NCBI GenBank assembly: GCA_001303585.1
Contig: LJTT01000002.1
Span: 5,837-69,836 of the forward strand
DNA: 64,000 nucleotides
Direction of reading: 5' to 3'
Source of the DNA: Betaproteobacteria bacterium SG8_41
Lineage (GTDB): Bacteria; Pseudomonadota; Gammaproteobacteria; Burkholderiales; SG8-41
A model generated the notes under the pieces. The model was not told the origin of the DNA, ran no database searches, and worked only from the letters and a program-made list of their open reading frames with translations. Shown here in pieces: positions 15,182 to 47,682 of this stretch. Within the stretch, counting starts at the first letter, position 1, and the number at the start of each line of letters is the position of its first letter. The translations under genes were made by a program, and so were the position numbers.

Positions 15182-15343
15182 GCCTCTGCCTCTCCAACGC
15201 ATGACAAGCCGCATCGCGTCGGCAGCCTGCGGCCTTCGCGGGTCGCATCCCCCTCAACCGGGGCCCCTGCTCCTCCGCTCATGTCGCGCCTCTGCCTCTC
15301 CAACGCACGACAAGCCGCATCGCGTCGGCAGCCCGCAGCCTGC
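15182..15343 (-). repeat. hairpin element copy A with flanking 56-bp direct duplication (X-Y-X structure)
   Basis: X copies at 15182-15237 and 15288-15343 differ at 4 positions. The core Y at 15238-15287 contains ggtcgcatccccctcaaccggggcccctgctcc. Confidence 0.8.
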
Positions 15344-15360
15344 GTGATGCCGCGTCAGAA

Positions 15361-26425: not shown

Positions 26426-26600
26426 GGGTTCAAGTTTCAAGTTTGGGCGATGGCTGTACGCGAAGTTTCTCGCATTGAACTTCGAACATGGAACTTTGAA
26501 CCCGGAACTCGAAACTCGAAACTCGAAACTCGAAACTCGAAACTCGAAACTCGAAACTCGAAACTCGAAACTCGGAACCCGGAACCCGGAACATTGAACG
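26426..26600. repeat. asymmetric hairpin/microsatellite: GAAACTC heptamer array (9 perfect units plus degenerate flanks) opposite a short complementary arm
   Basis: The left arm is gttcaag tttcaag tttgggc (26426-26447). The right arm is a GAACNNN-type heptamer series from about 26474, with 9 exact GAAACTC units at 26511-26573, then ggaaccc x2. It lies between convergent yacG and the Nudix gene. Confidence 0.9.
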
Positions 26601-26607
26601 CCGACCG

Positions 26608-34446: not shown

Positions 34447-34458
34447 GACCCCGCCTAG

Positions 34459-34554
34459 TTCAAGGTTTCAGGTTCAAGGTTCAAGGTTCAACGTTCAAGG
34501 TTCGGCGCGAAGCTCGGAACTTTGAACTCGGAACTTTGGACATTGAATCCGGCG
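34459..34554. repeat. hairpin with GTTCAAG heptamer arms downstream of lpxC
   Basis: The left arm has 7 heptamers: gttcaag gtttcag gttcaag gttcaag gttcaac gttcaag gttcggc. The right arm is roughly complementary: ctcggaa ctttgaa ctcggaa ctttgga cattgaa tccggcg. Confidence 0.85.
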
Positions 34555-39009: not shown

Positions 39010-39062
39010 GGCTTCGCCCGTTTCGGGTACCGAGCTCCGGGTTCCGGTTTCGAGGTGTCGGC

Positions 39063-39974
39063 TTAGCCCACATGCGCCGACTCCAATATCCGCACGCACA
39101 AATCTTCAAACGAGACTCCTCTGGCGCGGGCCGCCATCGGCACCAGGCTGTGGTCCGTCATCCCCGGCACGGTGTTGACCTCGAGCAGGTAAGGATCGCC
39201 CGCACGGTCCAGCATCAGGTCGACGCGCCCCCAGCCGCAGCAGCCCAGAAGTTCGAAGGCGGCGAGGGCTACCTGGCGCATGCGTTGCTCCTCCGCGTCC
39301 GGCAATCCGCAAGGGCAGATATAGCGCGTGTCATCGGCGACGTATTTCGCCTGGTAGTCGTAAAACGTCCGCGGTGTCTCGAGGCGTATCAATGGCAGCG
39401 GCTCGTCGTCGAGAATTCCGGCAGTGAGCTCAACGCCCTCGATAAAGGCTTCGGCGATCACCGCCTTGTCATAGCGGGCGGCCAGCTCATACGCCTCGCC
39501 GAGCGCCTCGACCGACGCGGCCTTCGTCATGCCGATTGACGAGCCTTCGCTTGCGGGCTTCACCATCACCGGCAGTCCCAGTCGGTCCACCACCCGCAAG
39601 TAGTCGGTTCGCGGCGTGAGCAGCTCATAGGCCGGGGTTGGCATTCCGGCTGCCTGCCACAGGAGCTTGGTGCGCCACTTGTCCATGGCGAGCGCGCTCG
39701 CCATGACGCCACTGCCGGTATAGGGAATGCCGAGATATTCGAGCGCGCCCTGCACCGTTCCGTCTTCGCCGAAACGGCCGTGCAACGCGACAAAGGCGCG
39801 CTCGAATTTCCCGGCGGCGAGCTCGTCCAGCCGCTGCTCGCGCGGATCGAAGGCATGAGCATCCACACCGCTCCTCTTCAGGGCAGCGAGCACCATCGCC
39901 CCGCTCTTGAGCGAGATCTCCCTCTCGGCCGAGCGGCCGCCCATTAACACCGCGACCTTTCCAAAATTACCCAT
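39063..39974 (-). CDS. ddl: D-alanine--D-alanine ligase
   Basis: [22 protein letters not shown]...[14 protein letters not shown]...EVNTVPGMT. Confidence 0.95.
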
Positions 39975-40115
39975 CCATCACTCTCCGGCCTGCCCATTCG
40001 CTTGGGCATCCGCACGTGCACCTTCGGGGTCGCACCCCACCAAGAACGTGGGGCCCCTGCTCCGCCCTCCGGTGCCCCCGCCCATCAAGACCGCTACCTT
40101 TCCAAACTTGCTCAC
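39937..40115 (-). repeat. hairpin element copy B inside the ddl 5' end, with diverged duplication of the ddl start (X-Y-X)
   Basis: X copies at 39937-39974 and 40078-40115 have 31 of 38 positions identical. The core Y at 39975-40077 contains ggggtcgcaccccaccaagaacgtggggcccctgctcc. Confidence 0.8.
39978..40115 (-). CDS. leader ORF created by the duplication (45 codons; N-terminus mimics Ddl)
   Basis: The GTG at 40115, 6 nt after the murB stop, reads [14 protein letters not shown]..., runs through the element, and ends at the TGA at 39980-39978, 3 nt before the ddl ATG. Translation is untested. Confidence 0.35.
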   Translation of the reverse strand: MSKFGKVAVLMGGGTGGRSRGPTFLVGCDPEGARADAQANGQAGE

Positions 40116-40121
40116 GACCGT

Positions 40122-41111
40122 TCACCGTTCACCCACAATGCGCACTTCGCGCTCCAGTTCGATCCCGAACTTTTCGCGCACGCTGCGTTCCGCCAGCTCG
40201 ATGAGCGCCTCGATATCGGACGCGCTTGCCCCGCCGGTATTGACGATGAAGTTCGCGTGCTTATCCGAGATCTGTGCACCGCCGATGACGCGCCCCTTCA
40301 GCCCGCAGGCCTCGATCAGCCGCGCAGCGTAATCGTTCGGCGGATTGCGAAACACGGAACCGGCGTTGGGTTTCTCGAGCGGCTGCGTCGAGAGACGCCT
40401 TTGCAGCAGTCCCTTGATGATGCGGCGCGACGACTGGCGGTCGCCGCGGGGAAGACGGAAGATCGCGGCAACGAACCATTCTTTGGGCCGATCGGGGGTG
40501 AACGATAGAGAGTCAGGCTCGCCGGTTTCTGGTACCGGTTGCCCCACGCCTTGATCCTTCAGGCGCACGTGGCGGTAGTCGATCTCGTAGTCCTCCGGAA
40601 AACGCTCGCGCAAGGTGCCGCTGCGATCGATCGTCACTGCACGCGCCACGATCTTCCAGGTCTCGCCGCCGAAACAGCCTGCATTCATCGCGAGCGCGCC
40701 GCCCACCGTGCCCGGTATGCCCGCGAGGAATTCCGCCCCCCTGAAACCATGCATTGCCGCAAAGCGCGCGACTTTCGGGCTCGCGATGCCGGCCTCGGCG
40801 TAGATCTCGCCGTGCCCGTTTTCGACGCGCCCGACCCGGATCGCCCGCAGCGCCCACTGCATCAGGATCACCGTGCCGCGCACGCCCGCGTCGCGCACCA
40901 GCAGGTTGCTCCCGAGGCCCACGATGTGCACCGGCTCGCTCACCGACAGGGAACGCAGGAAGGCGGTCAGATCGTCGAGGTCGGCCGGAAAATACGCCCG
41001 GTCCGCGGGACCGCCGACGCGCCAGCTCGTGTGGCGCGCCATCGGCTCGTCCTGCCGCAGCTCCCCGCGCAGAGTCACGACCCGTTTCTCAGGGTCCGTT
41101 ATCGCGTTCAT
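40122..41111 (-). CDS. murB: UDP-N-acetylenolpyruvoylglucosamine reductase
   Basis: [11 protein letters not shown]...GLGSNLLV...GSVFRNP. The start overlaps the murC stop. Confidence 0.95.
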
Positions 41112-42538
41112 GCCGCTCCTCCGTTTACGCTGCGCACCCGGTTTGCGAGTTGGATGGCCACAGTGCCTATGGAACCCGCGCCCATCGTGAGCACCACATC
41201 GCCGTCGCGCGCCAATGCCAGGATCTCAGCCGGCAACTGGGACACCTTTTCCACAAAGACCGGTTCCACCTTGCCCTGCACCCTCACAGCCCGTGCAAGC
41301 GCCCGCCCATCGGCCGCCACGATGGGCGCCTCACCCGCCGCGTAAACCTCGGTCAGAATGACCGCGTCCGCTGTGGAAAGGACCGTGACGAAGTCCTCGA
41401 AGCAATCGCGGGTGCGCGTGTAGCGATGGGGCTGGAATGCAAGCAGAAGCCTTCGCTTCGGGAAAGCGCCGCGCGCCGCCGCCAGCGTCGCTGCCATCTC
41501 CGCGGGATGGTGGCCGTAATCGTCAATCAGCGTGAAGCTGCCTCCGCCCGGCAGCCGCACCTTTCCGAACTGCTGGAAGCGGCGGCCGACTCCCTTGAAC
41601 TGGGCGAGCGCCCGGGCGATCTTCTTCTCGGGCACACCCAGCTCCAGACCGACGGCAACCGCCGCGAGCGCATTGCGCACGTTGTGCACGCCCGGAAGGT
41701 TGAGCGTAATGGCCAGCTTGCCGTTGCCGGACGCGGCGCCTGAAGGGCCCGACCGCTCGACCTGGAAGCGCATTTGCCCGCCACTCGCGATCACGTCAAC
41801 AGCGCGTACATGCGCGTCAGGAGAAAGTCCGTAGGGAGTGACCGGCTTGCTCAACTGGGGCATGATGGTCCGGACGTTCGGGTCATCGATGCAAAGGACG
41901 GCCATGCCGTAGAACGGCAGGCGCTGCAGGAAATCGACAAATGCCTGCCGCAGCTTGTCCAGAGAATGGTCATAGGTCTCCATGTGGTCAGCGTCGATAT
42001 TGGTGACCACGGCGACCACGGGTTGCAGGTAAAGGAAAGATGCGTCGGATTCATCGGCTTCGGCCACGATGAACTCGCCGGCACCGAGCTTGGCATTGCT
42101 GCCCGCCGCTTCGAGCCTGCCACCGATCACGAACGTGGGATCCAGTCCGCCTTCCGCGAGCACGCTCGCGACGAGACTGGTCGTGGTGGTCTTGCCATGG
42201 GTGCCGGCCACCGCGATGCCTTGTTTCAGCCGCATCAACTCGGCGAGCATCAGCGCCCGCGGAACCACCGGGACCTTCGCGCCGCGCGCGGCAACGACCT
42301 CGGGGTTGTCGTCCCGCACAGCACTCGATATGACGACCGCGTCGGCGCCCGCGACATGCTCGGCGGAGTGACCGCTGCGGATGCGGGCGCCAAGCCCGCG
42401 CAAGCGGCGCGTCACCGCGTTGTCCGCAAGATCGGAGCCACTCACCGCGTAACCGAGATTGAGCAGCACCTCGGCGATGCCGCACATGCCGGCGCCGCCT
42501 ATCCCCACGAAATGCACATGCTTCACCTTGTGTTTCAT
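41108..42538 (-). CDS. murC: UDP-N-acetylmuramate--L-alanine ligase
   Basis: [25 protein letters not shown]...[12 protein letters not shown] at 42538 with an AAGGAG SD. Confidence 0.95.
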
Positions 42539-42744
42539 CGGCGGCAGCTCCTTGCCCGCGACACGACACAGCCGGCGGCCCACGCCGATCGCGGCCGGTC
42601 GCATCCCCTCGCAAAAACCGCAAGGGGCCCCTGCTCCCTGCTCTCAGCGGTCCCGCCTATCCCCACGAAATGCACATGCTTCACCTTGTGTTTCATCGGC
42701 GGCAGCTCCTTGCCCGCGACACGACACAGCCGGCGGCCGACGCC
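42495..42744 (-). repeat. hairpin element copy C inside the murC 5' end, with a 92-bp near-perfect duplication (X-Y-X)
   Basis: X copies at 42495-42586 and 42653-42744 differ at a single position (42581 c versus 42739 g). The core Y at 42587-42652 contains ggtcgcatcccctcgcaaaaaccgcaaggggcccctgctcc. Confidence 0.9.
42535..42696 (-). CDS. leader ORF created by the duplication (53 codons; first 15 residues identical to MurC)
   Basis: The ATG at 42696 carries a duplicated SD. The ORF reads [15 protein letters not shown], crosses the element, changes frame relative to murC, and stops at a TGA that overlaps the genuine murC ATG (ATGA at 42538-42535). Translation is untested. Confidence 0.35.
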
Positions 42745-42782
42745 ACCTGAGCCCGGTCTGCGTTCTGCCTTCTGCCTTCGGG

Positions 42783-43853
42783 TCATGCGGCCAGCTCCGC
42801 GCAAACTTTCGCGACAGCGCGCGTGGCATCGGGTTTGCCCACGGCACGCGCCTGTTGCGCCATGGCAAGCAGCCGCTCGCGTGTCAATCCAGCCAGCATC
42901 TCGGCAAGCCGCTGCGGCGTGAATTCCAGCTGGGGAATCAGCAGGGCAGCGCCGCGATCCGCAAGGAACCGCGCGTTGAGGATCTGGTGGTCATCCACGG
43001 CGTGCGGGTAGGGCACCAGCACGGAAGCCAATCCCGCCGCCGCGATCTCGGCGATGGTGGTGGCGCCCGCGCGGCAAATGATGAGATCGGACTCGCCGTA
43101 GCGCGCCGCAATGTCGTCGATGAAAGCCGTCACCTCAGCCTCGACGCCGCGCTCCTGGTAAGAGCGCCGGACTGCCTCCTCGTGCGCGCCTCCTGCCTGG
43201 TGCAGGACCCGCGGGCGCGCTTGCTCGGGCACGAGCGCCAGCGCATCGGGTAATGTCGTATTGAGCACCCGCGCGCCCTGGCTGCCACCCATCACCAGGA
43301 TCCTCAGGCGCCCGCCCCGTTCCCGGTAGCGGTTTTCGGGAGGCGCCATCACCACGATCTCCGCCCGCACCGGATTGCCGGTGATGATCACTGCAGTAGC
43401 TTCGCCAAATGCCTCGGGAAACGTGGTGAGCACCCGGTCGGCAAGCTTCGCCAGGACCCGGTTAGCGAGGCCGGCCACCGAATTCTGCTCGTGAATCGCC
43501 AAAGGGCGGTTGAACAGCGCCGCCATCATTGCGCCGGGAAACGAGACGTAGCCGCCCATGCCGAGCACGACGTCCGGGCGGTGCGAGAAGATCGCGCGTG
43601 CGGCCTGCCAGAACGCCAGGAGCAGCTGCGCGGGCAGCAAGGCCGCCTGCAGCACGTTGCGGCCCCGCACGCCCGAGAACCGGACCCACGCCATTGCGTA
43701 GCGGCGCTGGGGAATCAGACCCGCCTCCATCCCGGCCCGGCTACCCATCCAGACCACGTTCCAGCCCTCGGCGCGCAGATACTCCGCCACAGCGAGGCCG
43801 GGGAAAATGTGGCCGCCCGTGCCCCCGGCCATGATCATGATCGTCCGGCTCAC
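42783..43853 (-). CDS. murG: undecaprenyldiphospho-muramoylpentapeptide beta-N-acetylglucosaminyltransferase
   Basis: IMIMAGGTGGHIFPGLAVA...MGGSQGA. GTG start at 43853. Confidence 0.95.
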   Translation of the reverse strand: MSRTIMIMAGGTGGHIFPGLAVAEYLRAEGWNVVWMGSRAGMEAGLIPQRRYAMAWVRFSGVRGRNVLQAALLPAQLLLAFWQAARAIFSHRPDVVLGMGGYVSFPGAMMAALFNRPLAIHEQNSVAGLANRVLAKLADRVLTTFPEAFGEATAVIITGNPVRAEIVVMAPPENRYRERGGRLRILVMGGSQGARVLNTTLPDALALVPEQARPRVLHQAGGAHEEAVRRSYQERGVEAEVTAFIDDIAARYGESDLIICRAGATTIAEIAAAGLASVLVPYPHAVDDHQILNARFLADRGAALLIPQLEFTPQRLAEMLAGLTRERLLAMAQQARAVGKPDATRAVAKVCAELAA

Positions 43854-43953
43854 TTCAGCACCCTCTGTTCACCACAGCAGCAAACACAGGCAGAGGAAAG
43901 TTTTTCGACAGGAATCTTCGTGACCCTGTGTCTCCGTGGTTCAGCGCACCGGC

Positions 43954-45114
43954 TCATACGGTATGCCCCCGCATGATCTGGCGGTTCTCCCAATCGACGC
44001 GCAGCAGCACCGCGATCGAGCAGCACGTCGCTGCGATCGCGCTGCCCCCGAATGACAGCAGGGGAAGCGTAAGCCCCTTGGTCGGCAACGTTCCCGTATT
44101 GACACCGATGTTGACGATCGCCTGCACGCCGATCCAAATCCCGATACCGTTGGCGACCAGTGCCGCGAAATGGCGCTCGAGCATCGCAGCGCGACGCCCT
44201 ATCGCGAATGCGCGCATCACGATCCAGGCAAAAGCGAGAACGATCGCCATCACCGCCACGAAGCCAAGCTCTTCGGCAATCACGGCAAGCAGAAAATCGG
44301 TGTGCGCCTCAGGCAGGTAGAAGAGCTTCTCCACGCTCGCCCCGAGGCCGACACCGAACCACTCGCCGCGCCCGAAAGCGATCAGCGCGTGCGAGAGCTG
44401 ATAGCCGGTGCCGTAGGGGTCGGCCCAGGGGTCCATGAAGCCGATCACGCGCTGCAGCCGATAGGGCGAGGCGAGAATCAGGAGCACGAATCCCGCCAGC
44501 AGCAACATCATCAGCCCCGCGAAGAGTTTCCAGTTCATGCCGCCCAGGAAGAGAATCCCCATCGCGATCACGGTGATCACAACGAACGCGCCGAAGTCCG
44601 GCTCGCGCAGCAGCAGACCCCCGATGACCAGCATCACCATCAGCATCGGTAGAAACCCGCGCCGCAGGCTGTCCATGTGCACCGCCTTGCGCACGGTGTA
44701 ATCCGCGGCATAGAGCACCACGAAAAGCTTCATGAACTCGGAGGGCTGGAGATTCACGAAGTAGAGCGATAGCCACCTTTTGCTGCCGTTCACCTCGCGC
44801 CCGATGCCGGGCACCAGCACCAGGGCGAGAAGCACCGCGCCGACGAGGAACAGCCAGGGCGCCGCCTGCTGCCACACCCGCAGCGGCACCTGGAACGCGA
44901 CGAGCGCTGCCATAACGCCTGCACCGACGAAAAGTGCGTGCCGCACCAGGTAGTAGCTTGCCTGGTATCCGGACGCGCGGCTCGCCTCTGCAATCGCAAT
45001 CGACGCGGAATAAACCATCACGACACCCAGCCCGAGCATGAGCAGCGTCATCCACATGAGCGTCTGGTCGTACTCGGCGAGCGGCAGACGGGCGTTGGCT
45101 TCCGAGTAAAACAC
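43954..45114 (-). CDS. ftsW: peptidoglycan glycosyltransferase / lipid II flippase-family FtsW
   Basis: Polytopic SEDS protein ([14 protein letters not shown]...LPEAHTDF...[16 protein letters not shown]). The GTG at 45114, 1 nt after the murD stop, is preferred over the long ORF start. Confidence 0.9.
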
Positions 45115-45115
45115 G

Positions 45116-46522
45116 TCAGCCCTCCTTCCGCGCGAGCGCCTGCACCGCTGCCACAAAGACTTGGCCGCGATGCTGATAATTGCGGAACATGTCGAAGCTT
45201 GCGCAGGCCGGCGAGAGCAGCACTGCGTCGCCCGCCCGCGAGGCACGGCGCGCCGCGGCAACCGCCTGCTCCATGTCGCGCGCATGCTCGAGGGGCACGC
45301 CGGTTCCAGACAGGGCCTGCTCGATTCGATCGGCGTCGCGCCCGATCAGGACGACAGCCCGCGCGTGGCGCTGTATCGCGGAAGCAAGCGGACTGAAGTC
45401 CTGTCCTTTTCCGTCCCCGCCCGCGATGAGCACGACGGGCTGGCCCATACCCGAGAGCGCCGCCACGGTCGCGCCCACGTTGGTGCCTTTCGAGTCGTCA
45501 TAAAAGGTCACGCCCGCGAATTCCGCCACGCGTTGCGCGCGATGGGGCAGCCCCTCGAAGCGGCGCAGCGCGTCCGCTGCCGAAGCTTCAGGCATTCCGA
45601 CAGCATGCGTCAGCGCGCAGGCAGCCAGGGCGTTGGCGGCGTTGTGCTCTCCCGCGAGCGGAAGCTCGGCAAGCGCCATCAGGCGATGCGAGCCGTGGGC
45701 CAGCGCGCGCGCGCCGCGCGTCTCCGTGACGCCCCATTCCGACTCCGCGCGCGGTGCCGAGAGCCCAAACGTGAAAATGGTGCGGCCGGCGCGCGCCATG
45801 CTCTTGCTCCAGCGGTCATCCCGGTTGAGGACCTGGACGCCGTTGCCAGCAAACACGCGCGACTTCGCGGCCGCGTAATCTTCCATCCCGTCGTAGCGGT
45901 CGAGGTGATCTTCCGTGAGATTGAGCACCGTTGCGGCGTCCGGCGCCAAATGCACCGTGCTTTCGAGCTGGAAGCTCGACAGTTCGATCACGAAAACATC
46001 CGGCGCGACCGGGGCGTCTTCGACATCAGCCAGCGCATCGAGAACCGGCAGGCCGATGTTTCCCGCGACCACCGTATTGCGGCCGGCCGCGCCGCAAATC
46101 GCGCCAGCCATGGCAGTGACGGTGCTCTTGCCATTCGATCCGGTGACAGCGAGGACTTGCGCATTGCGCGCCGGACTGGACGGCAGGGCCTGCGCGAACA
46201 GCTCCACATCGCCGACGAGCGGCACGCCCCGCCCCGAGGCCCGCGCGATCGGCGCCTCGCGCCGGTCGAGCCCGGGGCTGATCGCAATGCCATCTGCGTC
46301 CCGGAACGTCTCGTCGCTGAAGGCGCCCGTGACGAGCGGGACGTGGGGCAGCTCGCGAGCAAGCTGCGCGGCGTGGGGCGGCTCGGGACGGCTGTCCGCC
46401 ACCCGCACCCGCGCGCCGCGGCGCGCCAGCCAGCGCGTCATCGAAAGCCCCGTATCACCGAGCCCGAGCACGATCACTTTTCGTCCACTCCAATCCACAG
46501 AATCCGTCCGAGCGCCGCTCAA
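45116..46522 (-). CDS. murD: UDP-N-acetylmuramoylalanine--D-glutamate ligase
   Basis: [13 protein letters not shown]...[10 protein letters not shown]. The start is ambiguous (TTG at 46522 or GTG at 46498). Confidence 0.93.
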
Positions 46523-46565
46523 CGCCTGTCAACGACGATGTCGGAGCTCTTGACGCTCTTGGTTC

Positions 46566-46592
46566 CACGTTCATCTGCGTTCATCTGCGGTT
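46566..46592. repeat. tandem decamer (GTTCATCTGC x2) between mraY and murD
   Basis: cacgttcatctgcgttcatctgcggtt. The reverse complement GCAGATGAAC x2 differs by 1 nt from the GCAGATAAAC units at 7514-7533. Confidence 0.8.
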
Positions 46593-46596
46593 TCAT

Positions 46597-47682
46597 TCAA
46601 CGTAGCTTCAGGGTCGAAAGCCCCACCAGCACCAGCATCATCGTGATAATCCAGAAACGGACGACGACCTGGTTCTCCTTCCAGCCCTTCAATTCGTAGT
46701 GGTGATGCAGCGGCGCCATTCGAAAGATGCGCTTGCCGGTCAGCTTGAACGACGCGACCTGGAGCATCACCGAAAGCGTCTCCACCACGAAGACGCCGCC
46801 CATGATGAAGAGCACGATCTCCTGCCTCACGATGACCGCGATGGTTCCCAGCGCAGCGCCCAGCGCGAGCGCACCGACATCGCCCATGAACACTTCCGCC
46901 GGATAGGCGTTGAACCAGAGAAAGGCTAGCCCTGCTCCCGCGATTGCGCCGCAGATCACCGCCAGCTCGCCCGCGCCTGGAATGAAGGGAAAACCGAGAT
47001 ACTTGGAAAACACAGCATGGCCGGCGACGTAAGCGAAGATGCCAAGCGCGCCTCCGATCATTACCGTGGGCATGATCGCGAGGCCGTCGAGCCCGTCGGT
47101 CAGATTAACGGCATTGCTCGTTCCGACGATCACGAAATAGGTCATCACGATGAAGCCGAACGCGCCGAGCGGATACGCAATCTCCTTGAAGAACGGCACG
47201 ATGAAGACCGTCTGCGCCGGCAGATTCGTGTAGAAAGCGAGATACCCGGCGGCAGTCAGTCCCACGATCGATTGCCACAGGAATTTGGATCGCGCCGACA
47301 GCCCCTTGGGATTGCGCCGCACCACCTTGCGGTAGTCGTCCACCCAGCCGATGCCGCCGAAACCAATCGTCACCCAGAGGACAATCCATACCAGGCGATT
47401 CTCGAGGTCGGCCCACAGCAGCACCGTCGCCGTGATCGAAACCAACATCAACGCCCCGCCCATGGTGGGGGTCCCGGCTTTCGCGAGATGCGTTTGCGGC
47501 CCGTCGTCGCGTACCGACTGGCCAATCTTGTAGGCCGTGAGCTTGCGGATCATCGCGGGACCGACGACGAAGGAGATGACGAGCGCGGTTAGGCACGCCA
47601 GCACCGCGCGCAACGTGATGTAATTGAACACGTTGAACGCGCGCACTTCCCGGGCAAGAAACTGGGCAAGCTCTAGCAGCAT
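46597..47682 (-). CDS. mraY: phospho-N-acetylmuramoyl-pentapeptide transferase
   Basis: MLLELAQFL...[11 protein letters not shown]...[13 protein letters not shown]. Confidence 0.96.

Follow-up and report, generated by a model that had tools for sequence, protein, structure and literature searches.

A dispersed structured repeat at the murG-murC junction of Betaproteobacteria bacterium SG8_41 and a reading frame that may couple murC to murG

Neighbouring genes in trp and many other operons are coupled by termination-reinitiation through overlapping stop and start codons such as AUGA and UAAUG. In engineered bicistronic design (BCD) cassettes, a short leader cistron carries the Shine-Dalgarno (SD) sequence of the target gene and ends in an overlapping stop/start. 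Families of intergenic palindromic repeats are also described (REP/BIME, ERIC/IRU, Correia/NEMIS, the Neisseria NIMEs and the Rickettsia RPEs), as are the leader-peptide attenuators of trp, his, pheST and similar systems. Here we describe the junction between murG and murC in a 64-kb stretch of DNA, hereafter the window, from Betaproteobacteria bacterium SG8_41, an uncultured metagenome-assembled genome (MAG) built from short reads. The spacer between the two genes holds a copy of a small repeat element enclosed by a duplicated murC start. The best explanation, which we consider probable, is a short tandem array around this dispersed, structured element, in which a relay reading frame keeps murC coupled to murG and the repeats are homogenised.

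The locus resembles a termination-reinitiation pair in that the upstream frame ends in a stop that overlaps the downstream AUG and the SD sequence lies inside the upstream frame. In addition, 46 of 70 relatives have an ATGA overlap between murG and murC. It differs in that the upstream frame is not a gene but a non-conserved relay open reading frame (ORF) of 53 or 83 codons that runs across an inserted repeat and bridges formerly overlapping genes. The likeness to BCD cassettes lies in a leader that stops on the target start, in the embedded SD sequence of the target and in the presumed role, namely that ribosomes unfold structure at the start site. Unlike these cassettes, the arrangement is natural, repeated and apparently mobile, and its leader begins at the stop of the previous gene or at a duplicated gene start.

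Layout of the murG-murC junction

All coordinates of the locus refer to the window and are read on the minus strand. The window holds part of the dcw cluster of cell-wall and division genes, with mraY, murD, ftsW, murG, murC, murB, ddl, ftsA and ftsZ; murE, murF and ftsQ were located through junction sequence and homology. The murG-murC spacer is 244 nt long. Its features are listed below, where labels such as L001 denote other loci used for comparison.

42783..43853, minus strand: murG coding sequence, from the ORF list; the L001 homologue matches Pfam Glyco_transf_28 and Glyco_tran_28_C.
42785-42783, minus strand: murG stop TGA, overlapping ATG 42786-42784, from the ORF list.
42535..42786, minus strand: long relay ORF of 83 codons, in frame through filler, pseudo-start and element.
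42745..42782, minus strand: filler CCCGAAGGCAGAAGGCAGAACGCAGACCGGGCTCAGGT, 3' of the murG stop, from comparison with L205-L209.
42653..42744, minus strand: upstream copy of the 92-nt repeat, from the offset comparison and alignment to family members.
42587..42652, minus strand: 66-nt spacer between the repeats, the 5' domain of the element, a rod-like imperfect hairpin; nhmmer match 42577-42657, E=4.8e-10.
42495..42586, minus strand: downstream copy of the 92-nt repeat, from the offset comparison and alignment.
42535..42696, minus strand: 53-codon leader ORF, from ATG 42696 to TGA 42537-42535.
41108..42538, minus strand: murC coding sequence, 476 aa from ATG 42538, identical to KPK20585.1 of Betaproteobacteria bacterium SG8_41.

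Comparing the sequence with itself at an offset of 158 nt gave 86 identical nucleotides (42495-42580 against 42653-42738), one mismatch (42581/42739) and five more identical positions. This is the 92-nt direct repeat with one mismatch (42495-42586 against 42653-42744) that had been reported in an earlier interpretation made without database searches, the sequence-only reading. A repeat search reports a longer match of 111 nt at 92% identity (42490-42600 against 42648-42758); the extension is due to GACCGG, which stands upstream of each copy (identity run 42595-42600), with weak similarity for 14 nt further. A 92-nt match with one mismatch cannot be due to chance. The only comparable direct repeat elsewhere in the window is a 57-nt pair of 93% identity (15182-15238 and 15288-15344), and this pair flanks another copy of the element.

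Alignment to family members divides each repeat copy into 48 nt of element 3' domain with SD and 44 nt of murC codons 1-15. In the upstream copy, 42697-42744 is the 3' domain, including the SD AAGGAG at 42706-42711, and 42653-42696 is a murC pseudo-start with ATG 42696 and codons 1-15. In the downstream copy, 42539-42586 is the 3' domain with AAGGAG at 42548-42553, and 42495-42538 is the true murC start with the same 15 codons. Between them, the 66-nt spacer holds the invariant core GCAGGGGCCC (42634-42625) ... GGGATGCGACC (42607-42597) with a covarying apical stem CCCCUUGCG/CGCGAGGGG. We regard this identification of the parts as very probable. Much of it bears out the sequence-only reading: the upstream murC start copy with its AAGGAG, ATG 42696 and 15 codons is present in the offset comparison and the ORF list, the element does follow codon 15 of that copy, as the family-typical spacer confirms, and the downstream copy leaves the essential murC intact as a complete gene. 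That reading also described all 92 bp as a repeat of the murC start; the repeat stands, but 48 nt of it are element sequence and not sequence native to the region upstream of murC.

The 53-codon leader consists of the 15 murC codons and 38 more. As had been proposed, it leaves the murC frame, and the ORF list places its stop TGA at 42537-42535, where it shares TG with the murC ATG 42538-42536, which is the stop/start overlap looked for as a test of termination-reinitiation. The frame was correctly recognised, but it is open from further upstream, from ATG 42786 at the murG stop, and then spans 83 codons. The long relay ORF thus overlaps the murG stop with its start and the murC ATG with its stop. 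Judged from the empty site in L203 (gcGGAGctggcggcacgATGAgacac), murC ancestrally started at the position of ATG 42786; a GGAG lies 9 nt before it. The translation of an ORF at 42535..42804 contains the relay peptide, with SCRR as the terminal residues before the stop.

The filler behind murG consists of GAAGGCA-type heptamer repeats, common to L205-L209, followed by GACCGG, a match to the terminal part of the element core. A reading of 42745-42782 as the remnant of a first, decayed element core was withdrawn, as L205-L209 show the same stretch to be GAAGGCA heptamer filler. Upstream of the pseudo-start, the element-derived look is limited to GACCGG and the 48-nt 3' domain.

A repeat in a short-read MAG might be falsely expanded during assembly or binning. 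The same structure is found base for base in JGI contig L001 and in ENA contig L002 (MEGAHIT, k=141), and these contigs possibly share their samples with the SG8_41 MAG or stem from related ones, which leaves some room for a shared artefact. Against this, the locus is identical in three assemblies, one of them made with a k of 141 that is longer than the repeat, and many unrelated projects and lineages have homologous arrays. An artefact is hardly credible; the murC arrangement is biological, as judged from the same architecture in unrelated assemblies of other lineages.

It should be noted that a mechanical ORF call extends murC to 41108-42604, 498 aa from ATG 42604 inside the element (GGGATGCGACC). 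One 90%-cluster database record (P0013) is likewise 498 aa long. The 498-aa call is probably a start-site miscall due to the element.

The repeat element family

By comparison with other copies, the spacer is a member of a dispersed, structured family of intergenic repeats with a unit of ~110 nt. In brief, the 5' domain of the unit forms a rod-like hairpin that contains the invariant core GCAGGGGCCC-stem/loop-GGGAUGCGACC, and the 3' domain is variable, ends in an SD sequence and pairs in part with an internal GCCGCC-type segment. The core, written as GCAGGGGCCC-N(5-19)-GGG(A/G)TGCGACC, occurs three times in the window, always on the minus strand (at murC, at murB-ddl and near rplS). An nhmmer search of the window with a profile of 135 copies returned only these three. 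Elsewhere, 13 of 82 related loci have the core, as do at least 120 metagenome stretches and 6 stretches of viral contigs. A position-wise consensus places the left boundary ~17-23 nt before the core. The common subfamily reads GGCGGC ATGAGC AGGRA GCAGGGGCCCC-loop-GGGGATGCGACC GRCCGCGATTGCCGCC GGNCGCCGACA-(~35 nt variable)-CGGAGGCGGCGGC ATGA. The window murC copy aligns with solo copies over its full length, from TGAG (42646) to the murC ATG, and the 48-nt "murC leader" within the repeat is therefore the 3' domain of the element including its SD.

RNAalifold, run on 23 copies, gave a rod of four helices, P1 (GCGGCA/UGCCGC), P2 (GC/GC), P3 (GCA/UGC) and the apical stem P4. It also gave a fifth helix, in which GCCGCC pairs with the GGCGGC adjoining the SD. 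The consensus structure has 22 pairs with 94.5% of the cells paired, and double changes are seen at 9 pairs in 29 cells. None of 500 shuffles matched this, and slid controls reached at most 9 double-change cells. The apical stem alone has 35 double changes in the alignment of 135 copies; that alignment recovers the core helices only, the outer helices differing in register between subfamilies. The sequence fits a constraint on RNA as well as one on single-stranded DNA.

The element lies between co-directional genes in sense orientation in 37 cases and in antisense in 9. Among the unrelated junctions that carry it are ftsQ-ftsA, murE-murF and junctions of ABC-transporter-like genes. Some subfamilies occur as inverted pairs, and some copies stand after stop codons with no gene following. 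On the IMG/VR contigs L213 and L215 we observed a composite subfamily of ~170 nt, with the same core module plus further hairpins (...GGTCGCNGGCATCCCC...GATCCCCCTGCGGGGGCCCC...) and 3-4 copies per phage-like contig.

This distribution bears on the idea that the element is a cis-regulatory RNA, be it a riboswitch, a protein-binding leader or an attenuator, controlling the alanine-using ligases MurC and Ddl. In its favour, a covarying element does stand in the 5' leaders of murC and ddl in several lineages, with one helix adjoining the SD, and a short ORF upstream of a biosynthetic gene that overlaps a hairpin recalls the leader-peptide attenuators. Such control would hardly account for copies at many unrelated junctions, after stops without a following gene and in inverted pairs, and the murC junction of the closest relatives lacks it. 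Unlike in attenuators, we found no conserved U-run that would make a terminator, no run of regulatory codons in the leader, no alternative pairing and no conserved peptide, and the geometry is stop-on-start and not stop-before-terminator. Rfam 15 gave no match at E<=10 in 42300-43000 and none at the gathering score in 15 loci (84.6 kb). We therefore consider a cis-regulatory RNA very improbable. A single terminator-like call (42634-42620 plus GGTTTTTGCG) was also rejected as a terminator or attenuator; its T-run is the loop of the covarying stem, and the loops of other copies are unrelated to it.

With the palindromic repeat families the element shares its small size (~70-170 nt), its dispersed and structured nature, its mostly intergenic position within transcription units and its occurrence as solo copies, in tandem and in inverted pairs. 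The RPEs, which are also found inside reading frames, are similar in this respect too. It differs from these families in that no sequence similarity was found with Rfam or with literature searches for the core motif strings; these searches, which also covered repeats with translational coupling, returned nothing relevant. It further differs in its insertion at stop/start overlaps, in carrying an SD and an open relay frame, and in gene-start duplications of 29-92 nt that are not short and fixed. REP/BIME elements have a GTAG-type head and a palindrome of 20-40 nt; here the left end reads (G)GCGNC(A/G)TGAGC or GCGCGCCGGAGCG, a GTAG head is absent and the unit measures ~110 nt. As for the terminal inverted repeats of miniature inverted-repeat transposable elements (MITEs), the 5' domain is a long imperfect palindrome (P1-P4), the 3' domain adds another ~45-60 nt, and the repeats at the two outer ends (GGCGGCATGAG) are direct, not inverted. 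Unlike in MITEs, the flanking repeats vary, from 7-19 nt at solo copies to 29-52 nt at ddl and 45-92 nt at murC, and many copies have none that is detectable. The long repeats were thereby excluded as a regular target-site duplication of the family, since most solo copies have only 7-19 nt or none. We file the element as an intergenic structured repeat, distinctive for its conserved relay frame and its gene-start duplications.

The relay reading frame

The leader frame is open in all 11 murC repeats found, described below, and its first stop falls between -2 and +8 nt of the true start. The spacings between starts are 2 mod 3 in 10 of these 11 (158, 155, 140 and 83 nt; the exception is 148), that is in four of five length classes. 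In the ddl arrays the leader stop lies between -6 and +5 nt of the start in 6 of 6. Solo copies behave alike. In the ATGAGC subfamily the left ATG overlaps the TGA of the upstream gene; where a co-directional gene follows, the ATG-to-ATG distance is 2 mod 3 in 21 of 27 copies (104, 107, 110, 113, 128 and 131 nt), and the stop falls exactly on the next ATG in 19 of 27, with the core in different frames.

The peptide itself varies. Translation of the core gives GMRP, GDAT or GCDRPR, depending on the copy, which suggests selection on the frame as a whole and not on the peptide. Hairpin lengths are not multiples of three, and Pfam gave no match. On these three grounds we excluded a conserved micro-protein (MSREQGP...). 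In L078 (4700-4960) the ftsQ stop, which falls within the left end of the element, has mutated from ATGA to AAGA; FtsQ there reads through the element, gains ~37 residues and stops on the ATGA of ftsA.

We compared 70 betaproteobacterial murG-murC junctions, where the 46 overlaps mentioned above are 4 nt long, and 17 junctions have a spacer of at least 25 nt. A relay ORF, from an ATG or GTG at the murG stop to within -2 to +8 nt of the murC start, is present in 14 of these 17, against 5.4 expected from shuffled interiors. For spacers of at least 82 nt the count is 12 of 15 against ~3.7. The fillers that bear a relay are of several kinds, namely this element family, a CCGCAGAGACGCAGAG-type inverted-repeat element and heptamer arrays. 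Seen across these sequences, the geometry is conserved through changes of both length and filler.

Based on these observations, we suggest the following mechanism. Ribosomes would finish murG or load at either AAGGAG site, translate the relay ORF of 83 or 53 codons and so melt the hairpins of the element. They would then terminate on the UGA within AUGA and reinitiate at the murC AUG. The relay would thereby restore the coupling given by the ancestral ATGA overlap, so that the essential murC stays linked despite the insertion. Recombination would preserve the repeats, and the delivery of ribosomes to murC may depend on how many pseudo-starts there are (1 to 3). Coupling by termination-reinitiation had already been put forward in the sequence-only reading. 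Its ATGA geometry holds and is conserved across lineages and element copies; the coupling itself has comparative support, and we judge translational coupling of murC through the relay to be, on balance, probable.

The same geometry could also belong to a selfish repeat with no role in coupling. In that case murC would use its own AAGGAG, and the ATGA arrangement would be a by-product of insertion at ATGA sites, an inherited frame and the scarcity of stops in GC-rich DNA. Solo copies are flanked by a duplicated ATGA, so that the start of the left ORF and the right TGA are built in; 13 of the 21 in-frame copies share the length of 110 nt, maybe by descent; and shuffled spacers of 37-46 nt give a relay at frequencies of 0.83-0.85. 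This does not account well for the excess of relays in spacers of at least 82 nt, nor for relays across unrelated fillers (heptamers, the second inverted-repeat element and this family). Length variants of 104, 107, 110, 113 and 131 nt, and of 83, 140, 155 and 158 nt, keep the frame with the core in three frames, the FtsQ read-through in L078 still ends on the ftsA ATGA, and the orientation is biased 37 to 9. A purely selfish repeat is in our view rather unlikely.

Several points weigh against the coupled array that we favour. A full SD of its own, AAGGAG, would allow murC to be translated independently of the relay, and both the translation of the relay and the dependence of murC on it are inferred. 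The frame counts are not independent, as copies of the family are related by descent, and by length class the 2 mod 3 excess is modest (four of five for murC; six against five in the ATGAGC subfamily). Long frames are common in GC-rich DNA, and a relay appears in up to 85% of trials with shuffled short spacers. In predicted fold stability the window copy does not exceed shuffled sequence (z = -0.48), and the case for structure thus rests on covariation. No transposase or recombinase was identified in the 64-kb window, where no transposase-directed search was made. Finally, the patchy distribution of the array, described below, could stem from horizontal gain rather than from old age and loss.

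If the relay reading is true, the locus shows how repeats can live inside tightly coupled essential operons, at four dcw junctions in one genome, with translation still coupled, and it would be a natural counterpart of engineered bicistronic design. It also explains gene-start duplications and small ORFs that are prone to annotation miscalls. The at least 120 copies and the 17 spacer-bearing murG-murC junctions form a comparative test set for the rules of termination-reinitiation.

History of the murC array and other copies in the window

A survey of regions upstream of MurC homologues, together with a search for repeated-start motifs, gave 11 pseudo-start repeats upstream of murC in nine lineages, with these spacings:

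158 nt: the window, L080 and L088; element present.
155 nt: L008, and L005 twice (three starts); element present.
148 nt: L036; element present.
140 nt: L081; element present.
83 nt: L078 twice, and L182; plain tandem duplication, no core element.

The layout of pseudo-start, element and true start is shared by the window and six other lineages, whose MurC proteins are 70-79% identical. L004 and L039 carry the element and the junction on contigs that start inside the element. Wherever an element-bearing lineage has kept GGCGG (six loci and the window), the left junction is the same, GGCGG followed by a GACCGACAYGAGCAGG-like sequence; L036 and L081 have a diverged form. This shared junction points to one origin. 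The variable 3' domains are completely diverged between lineages at these MurC identities. The ancestral position of the murC start, at the ATG overlapping the murG stop, is occupied by the pseudo-start in L008, L080, L088 and L081. The closest relatives of SG8_41 have no array: L203 and L204 (MurC 93%) show the plain overlap gcacgATGAgacac, and L205-L209 (MurC 92%) have an 82-nt spacer of GAAGGCA heptamers and an SD, with neither element nor duplication.

Copies within a genome differ at 0-4 of 36 nt, and orthologous copies between genomes at a mean of 8.3. The nearest neighbour of the pseudo-start is its own true start in 7 of 9 genomes. L080 and L088 share the array with 3-4 differences between copies, and their duplication therefore predates their split. 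Copies with zero differences also occur in L036, L081 and L005. In L005 (4001-4320) there are three identical murC starts and two full elements at a period of 155 nt, which shows directly that the copy number of the array changes. These patterns indicate an array that is old or recurrently transferred and that is homogenised by gene conversion or unequal crossing-over. Such homogenising recombination would also expand the array, as in L005, or delete it without a scar, as at the empty sites of close relatives.

The sequence-only reading took the single mismatch in 92 bp, which our comparison confirmed, as a sign of one recent event. In such a scenario the element inserted into murC, and the gene was saved by a 92-bp duplication, either at the same time or in compensation. 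The near-identity of the copies and the absence of the array at 92-93% MurC identity (L203/L204 and L205-L209) fit this, and a comparison of sister strains, as had been advised, thus speaks for recency; at 70-79% identity, where the array is present, it speaks against it. The same architecture and junction recur there with the variable parts diverged to saturation, L080 and L088 share an array with diverged copies, and the zero-difference copies of L036, L081 and L005 point to general homogenisation. In addition, 48 of the 92 nt belong to a dispersed family. A single recent event is improbable and a fresh one-off origin unlikely. As the arrays are homogenised, the one mismatch dates the last homogenisation and not the origin. 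The lack of the array in the closest relatives leaves room for a gain, perhaps by transfer, or a re-expansion within the SG8_41 lineage.

Plain tandem duplications of the murC start also exist. We observed 83-nt repeats with no core element in L078 (639-850, three copies) and L182 (minus strand, 28-160, two copies), where the 28-codon leaders all end in an ATGA at the following start. Arrays of pseudo-starts at murC can thus arise or persist without the element. As in simple duplications of a 5' end by slipped or unequal recombination, the copy number varies from two to three and the copies are homogenised. The window array differs in that 66 nt of foreign, family-typical sequence lie between its copies and in that the upstream flank of the first copy is not a copy of the spacer.

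Solo copies sit exactly at ATGA stop/start overlaps of co-transcribed genes and have short flanking repeats that include ATGA. The left ATGA retains the stop of the upstream gene and opens a short ORF through the element; its stop falls on the next start codon, with the SD supplied by the element. Filled and empty sites can be paired: L160 and L181 are filled where murE-murF of the window is empty, and L182 is filled where ftsQ-ftsA of the window is empty, with the ftsA start ATGAGCAAG. In the murC case the element instead follows the GGCGG of codons 14-15, and everything from the start codon up to this site is present twice. Codons 14-20 of murC are natively GGCGGCGCCGGCATGAGCGGC in most relatives, a close mimic of the element terminal GGCGGCGGCATGAGC, and ddl has GGCGG at codons 12-13. 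We also note that murC codons 19-20 (42480-42494) read ATG TGC (Met-Cys) in SG8_41 and its close relatives and ATG AGC (Met-Ser) in others, so that the internal ATGAGC look-alike is altered in the SG8_41 lineage.

An insertion inside the gene would be lethal unless the start is duplicated, and only such events would survive. Microhomology-mediated template switching, leaving the gene at GGCGG and re-entering at the (A/G)TGAG of the start codon, would explain repeats that reach back to the start codon. Duplications that extend exactly from the insertion point to the start codon raise the question of how the element inserts. We tentatively speculate that this is an undescribed and probably mobile family of uncultured Betaproteobacteria, and of phage-like contigs from them, that targets stop/start overlaps. 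It would bring its own SD and relay frame as a "coupling kit" and could thereby spread into essential operons such as dcw with their coupling preserved. At look-alike sites (GGCGG...ATGAGC in murC, GGCGG in ddl) it would cause start duplications and form pseudo-start arrays of variable copy number that maybe tune expression.

The two other copies in the window are:

39972..40124, minus strand: murB-ddl array, with the murB stop at 40124-40122, the ddl pseudo-start GTG 40114 and the element at 40011-40079 (nhmmer).
15182..15344, minus strand: third copy of the family, with the element at 15226-15289; its neighbours are the rplS terminator and a 556-aa signal-peptide protein.

In the murB-ddl array the leader stop TGA 39980-39978 is followed by 3 nt and then by the true ddl ATG 39974. 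The ddl direct repeats (40078-40106 and 39937-39965) are 29 nt long with 3 mismatches, and the ddl copies are thus more diverged than those of murC. Other ddl arrays are found in L203, L004, L005, L042 and L049, with inverted-pair versions in L015 and L020. L203 keeps the ddl copy (38-nt repeat), and in L205 and L206 the ddl site is empty and filled with ACGGTRA heptamers. Near rplS, the 57-nt flanks (93%) are element 3'-domain sequence, which makes this copy ~1.5 tandem units in a non-coding context.

Two further dcw spacers hold other sequences. The ftsW-murG spacer (43850-43957, 100 nt, minus strand) carries a different inverted-repeat element, CCACGGAGACACAGGG...CCTCTGCCTGTGT, flanked by TGAGCCGG repeats and related to the CCGCAGAGACGCAGAG-type elements of L003 and L036. 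It is bridged from ATGA 43957 at the ftsW stop through 33 codons to GTGA 43853 at the murG start. At mraY-murD (46519-46599, minus strand) an ATG directly after the mraY TGA (46599-46594) opens a 25-codon ORF across CGCAGATGAA repeats. This ORF ends in a TGA overlapping TTG 46522, the putative first possible start of murD, and the spacer is probably bridged by a relay as well.

Tandem heptamers serve as intergenic filler in the window (26464-26603, 58-92, 34456-34504, 42760-42782, 40115-40128 and ~39010-39060), with the units AACTCGA, GGTTCAA, GAAGGCA, AACGGTG/ACGGTRA and CGAAACC-like. TAACTGA heptamer repeats in Beggiatoaceae are reportedly the subject of one paper. The gain or loss of a 7-nt unit shifts any relay frame. 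Longer heptamer arrays occupy both murG-murC and murB-ddl in L205 and L206.

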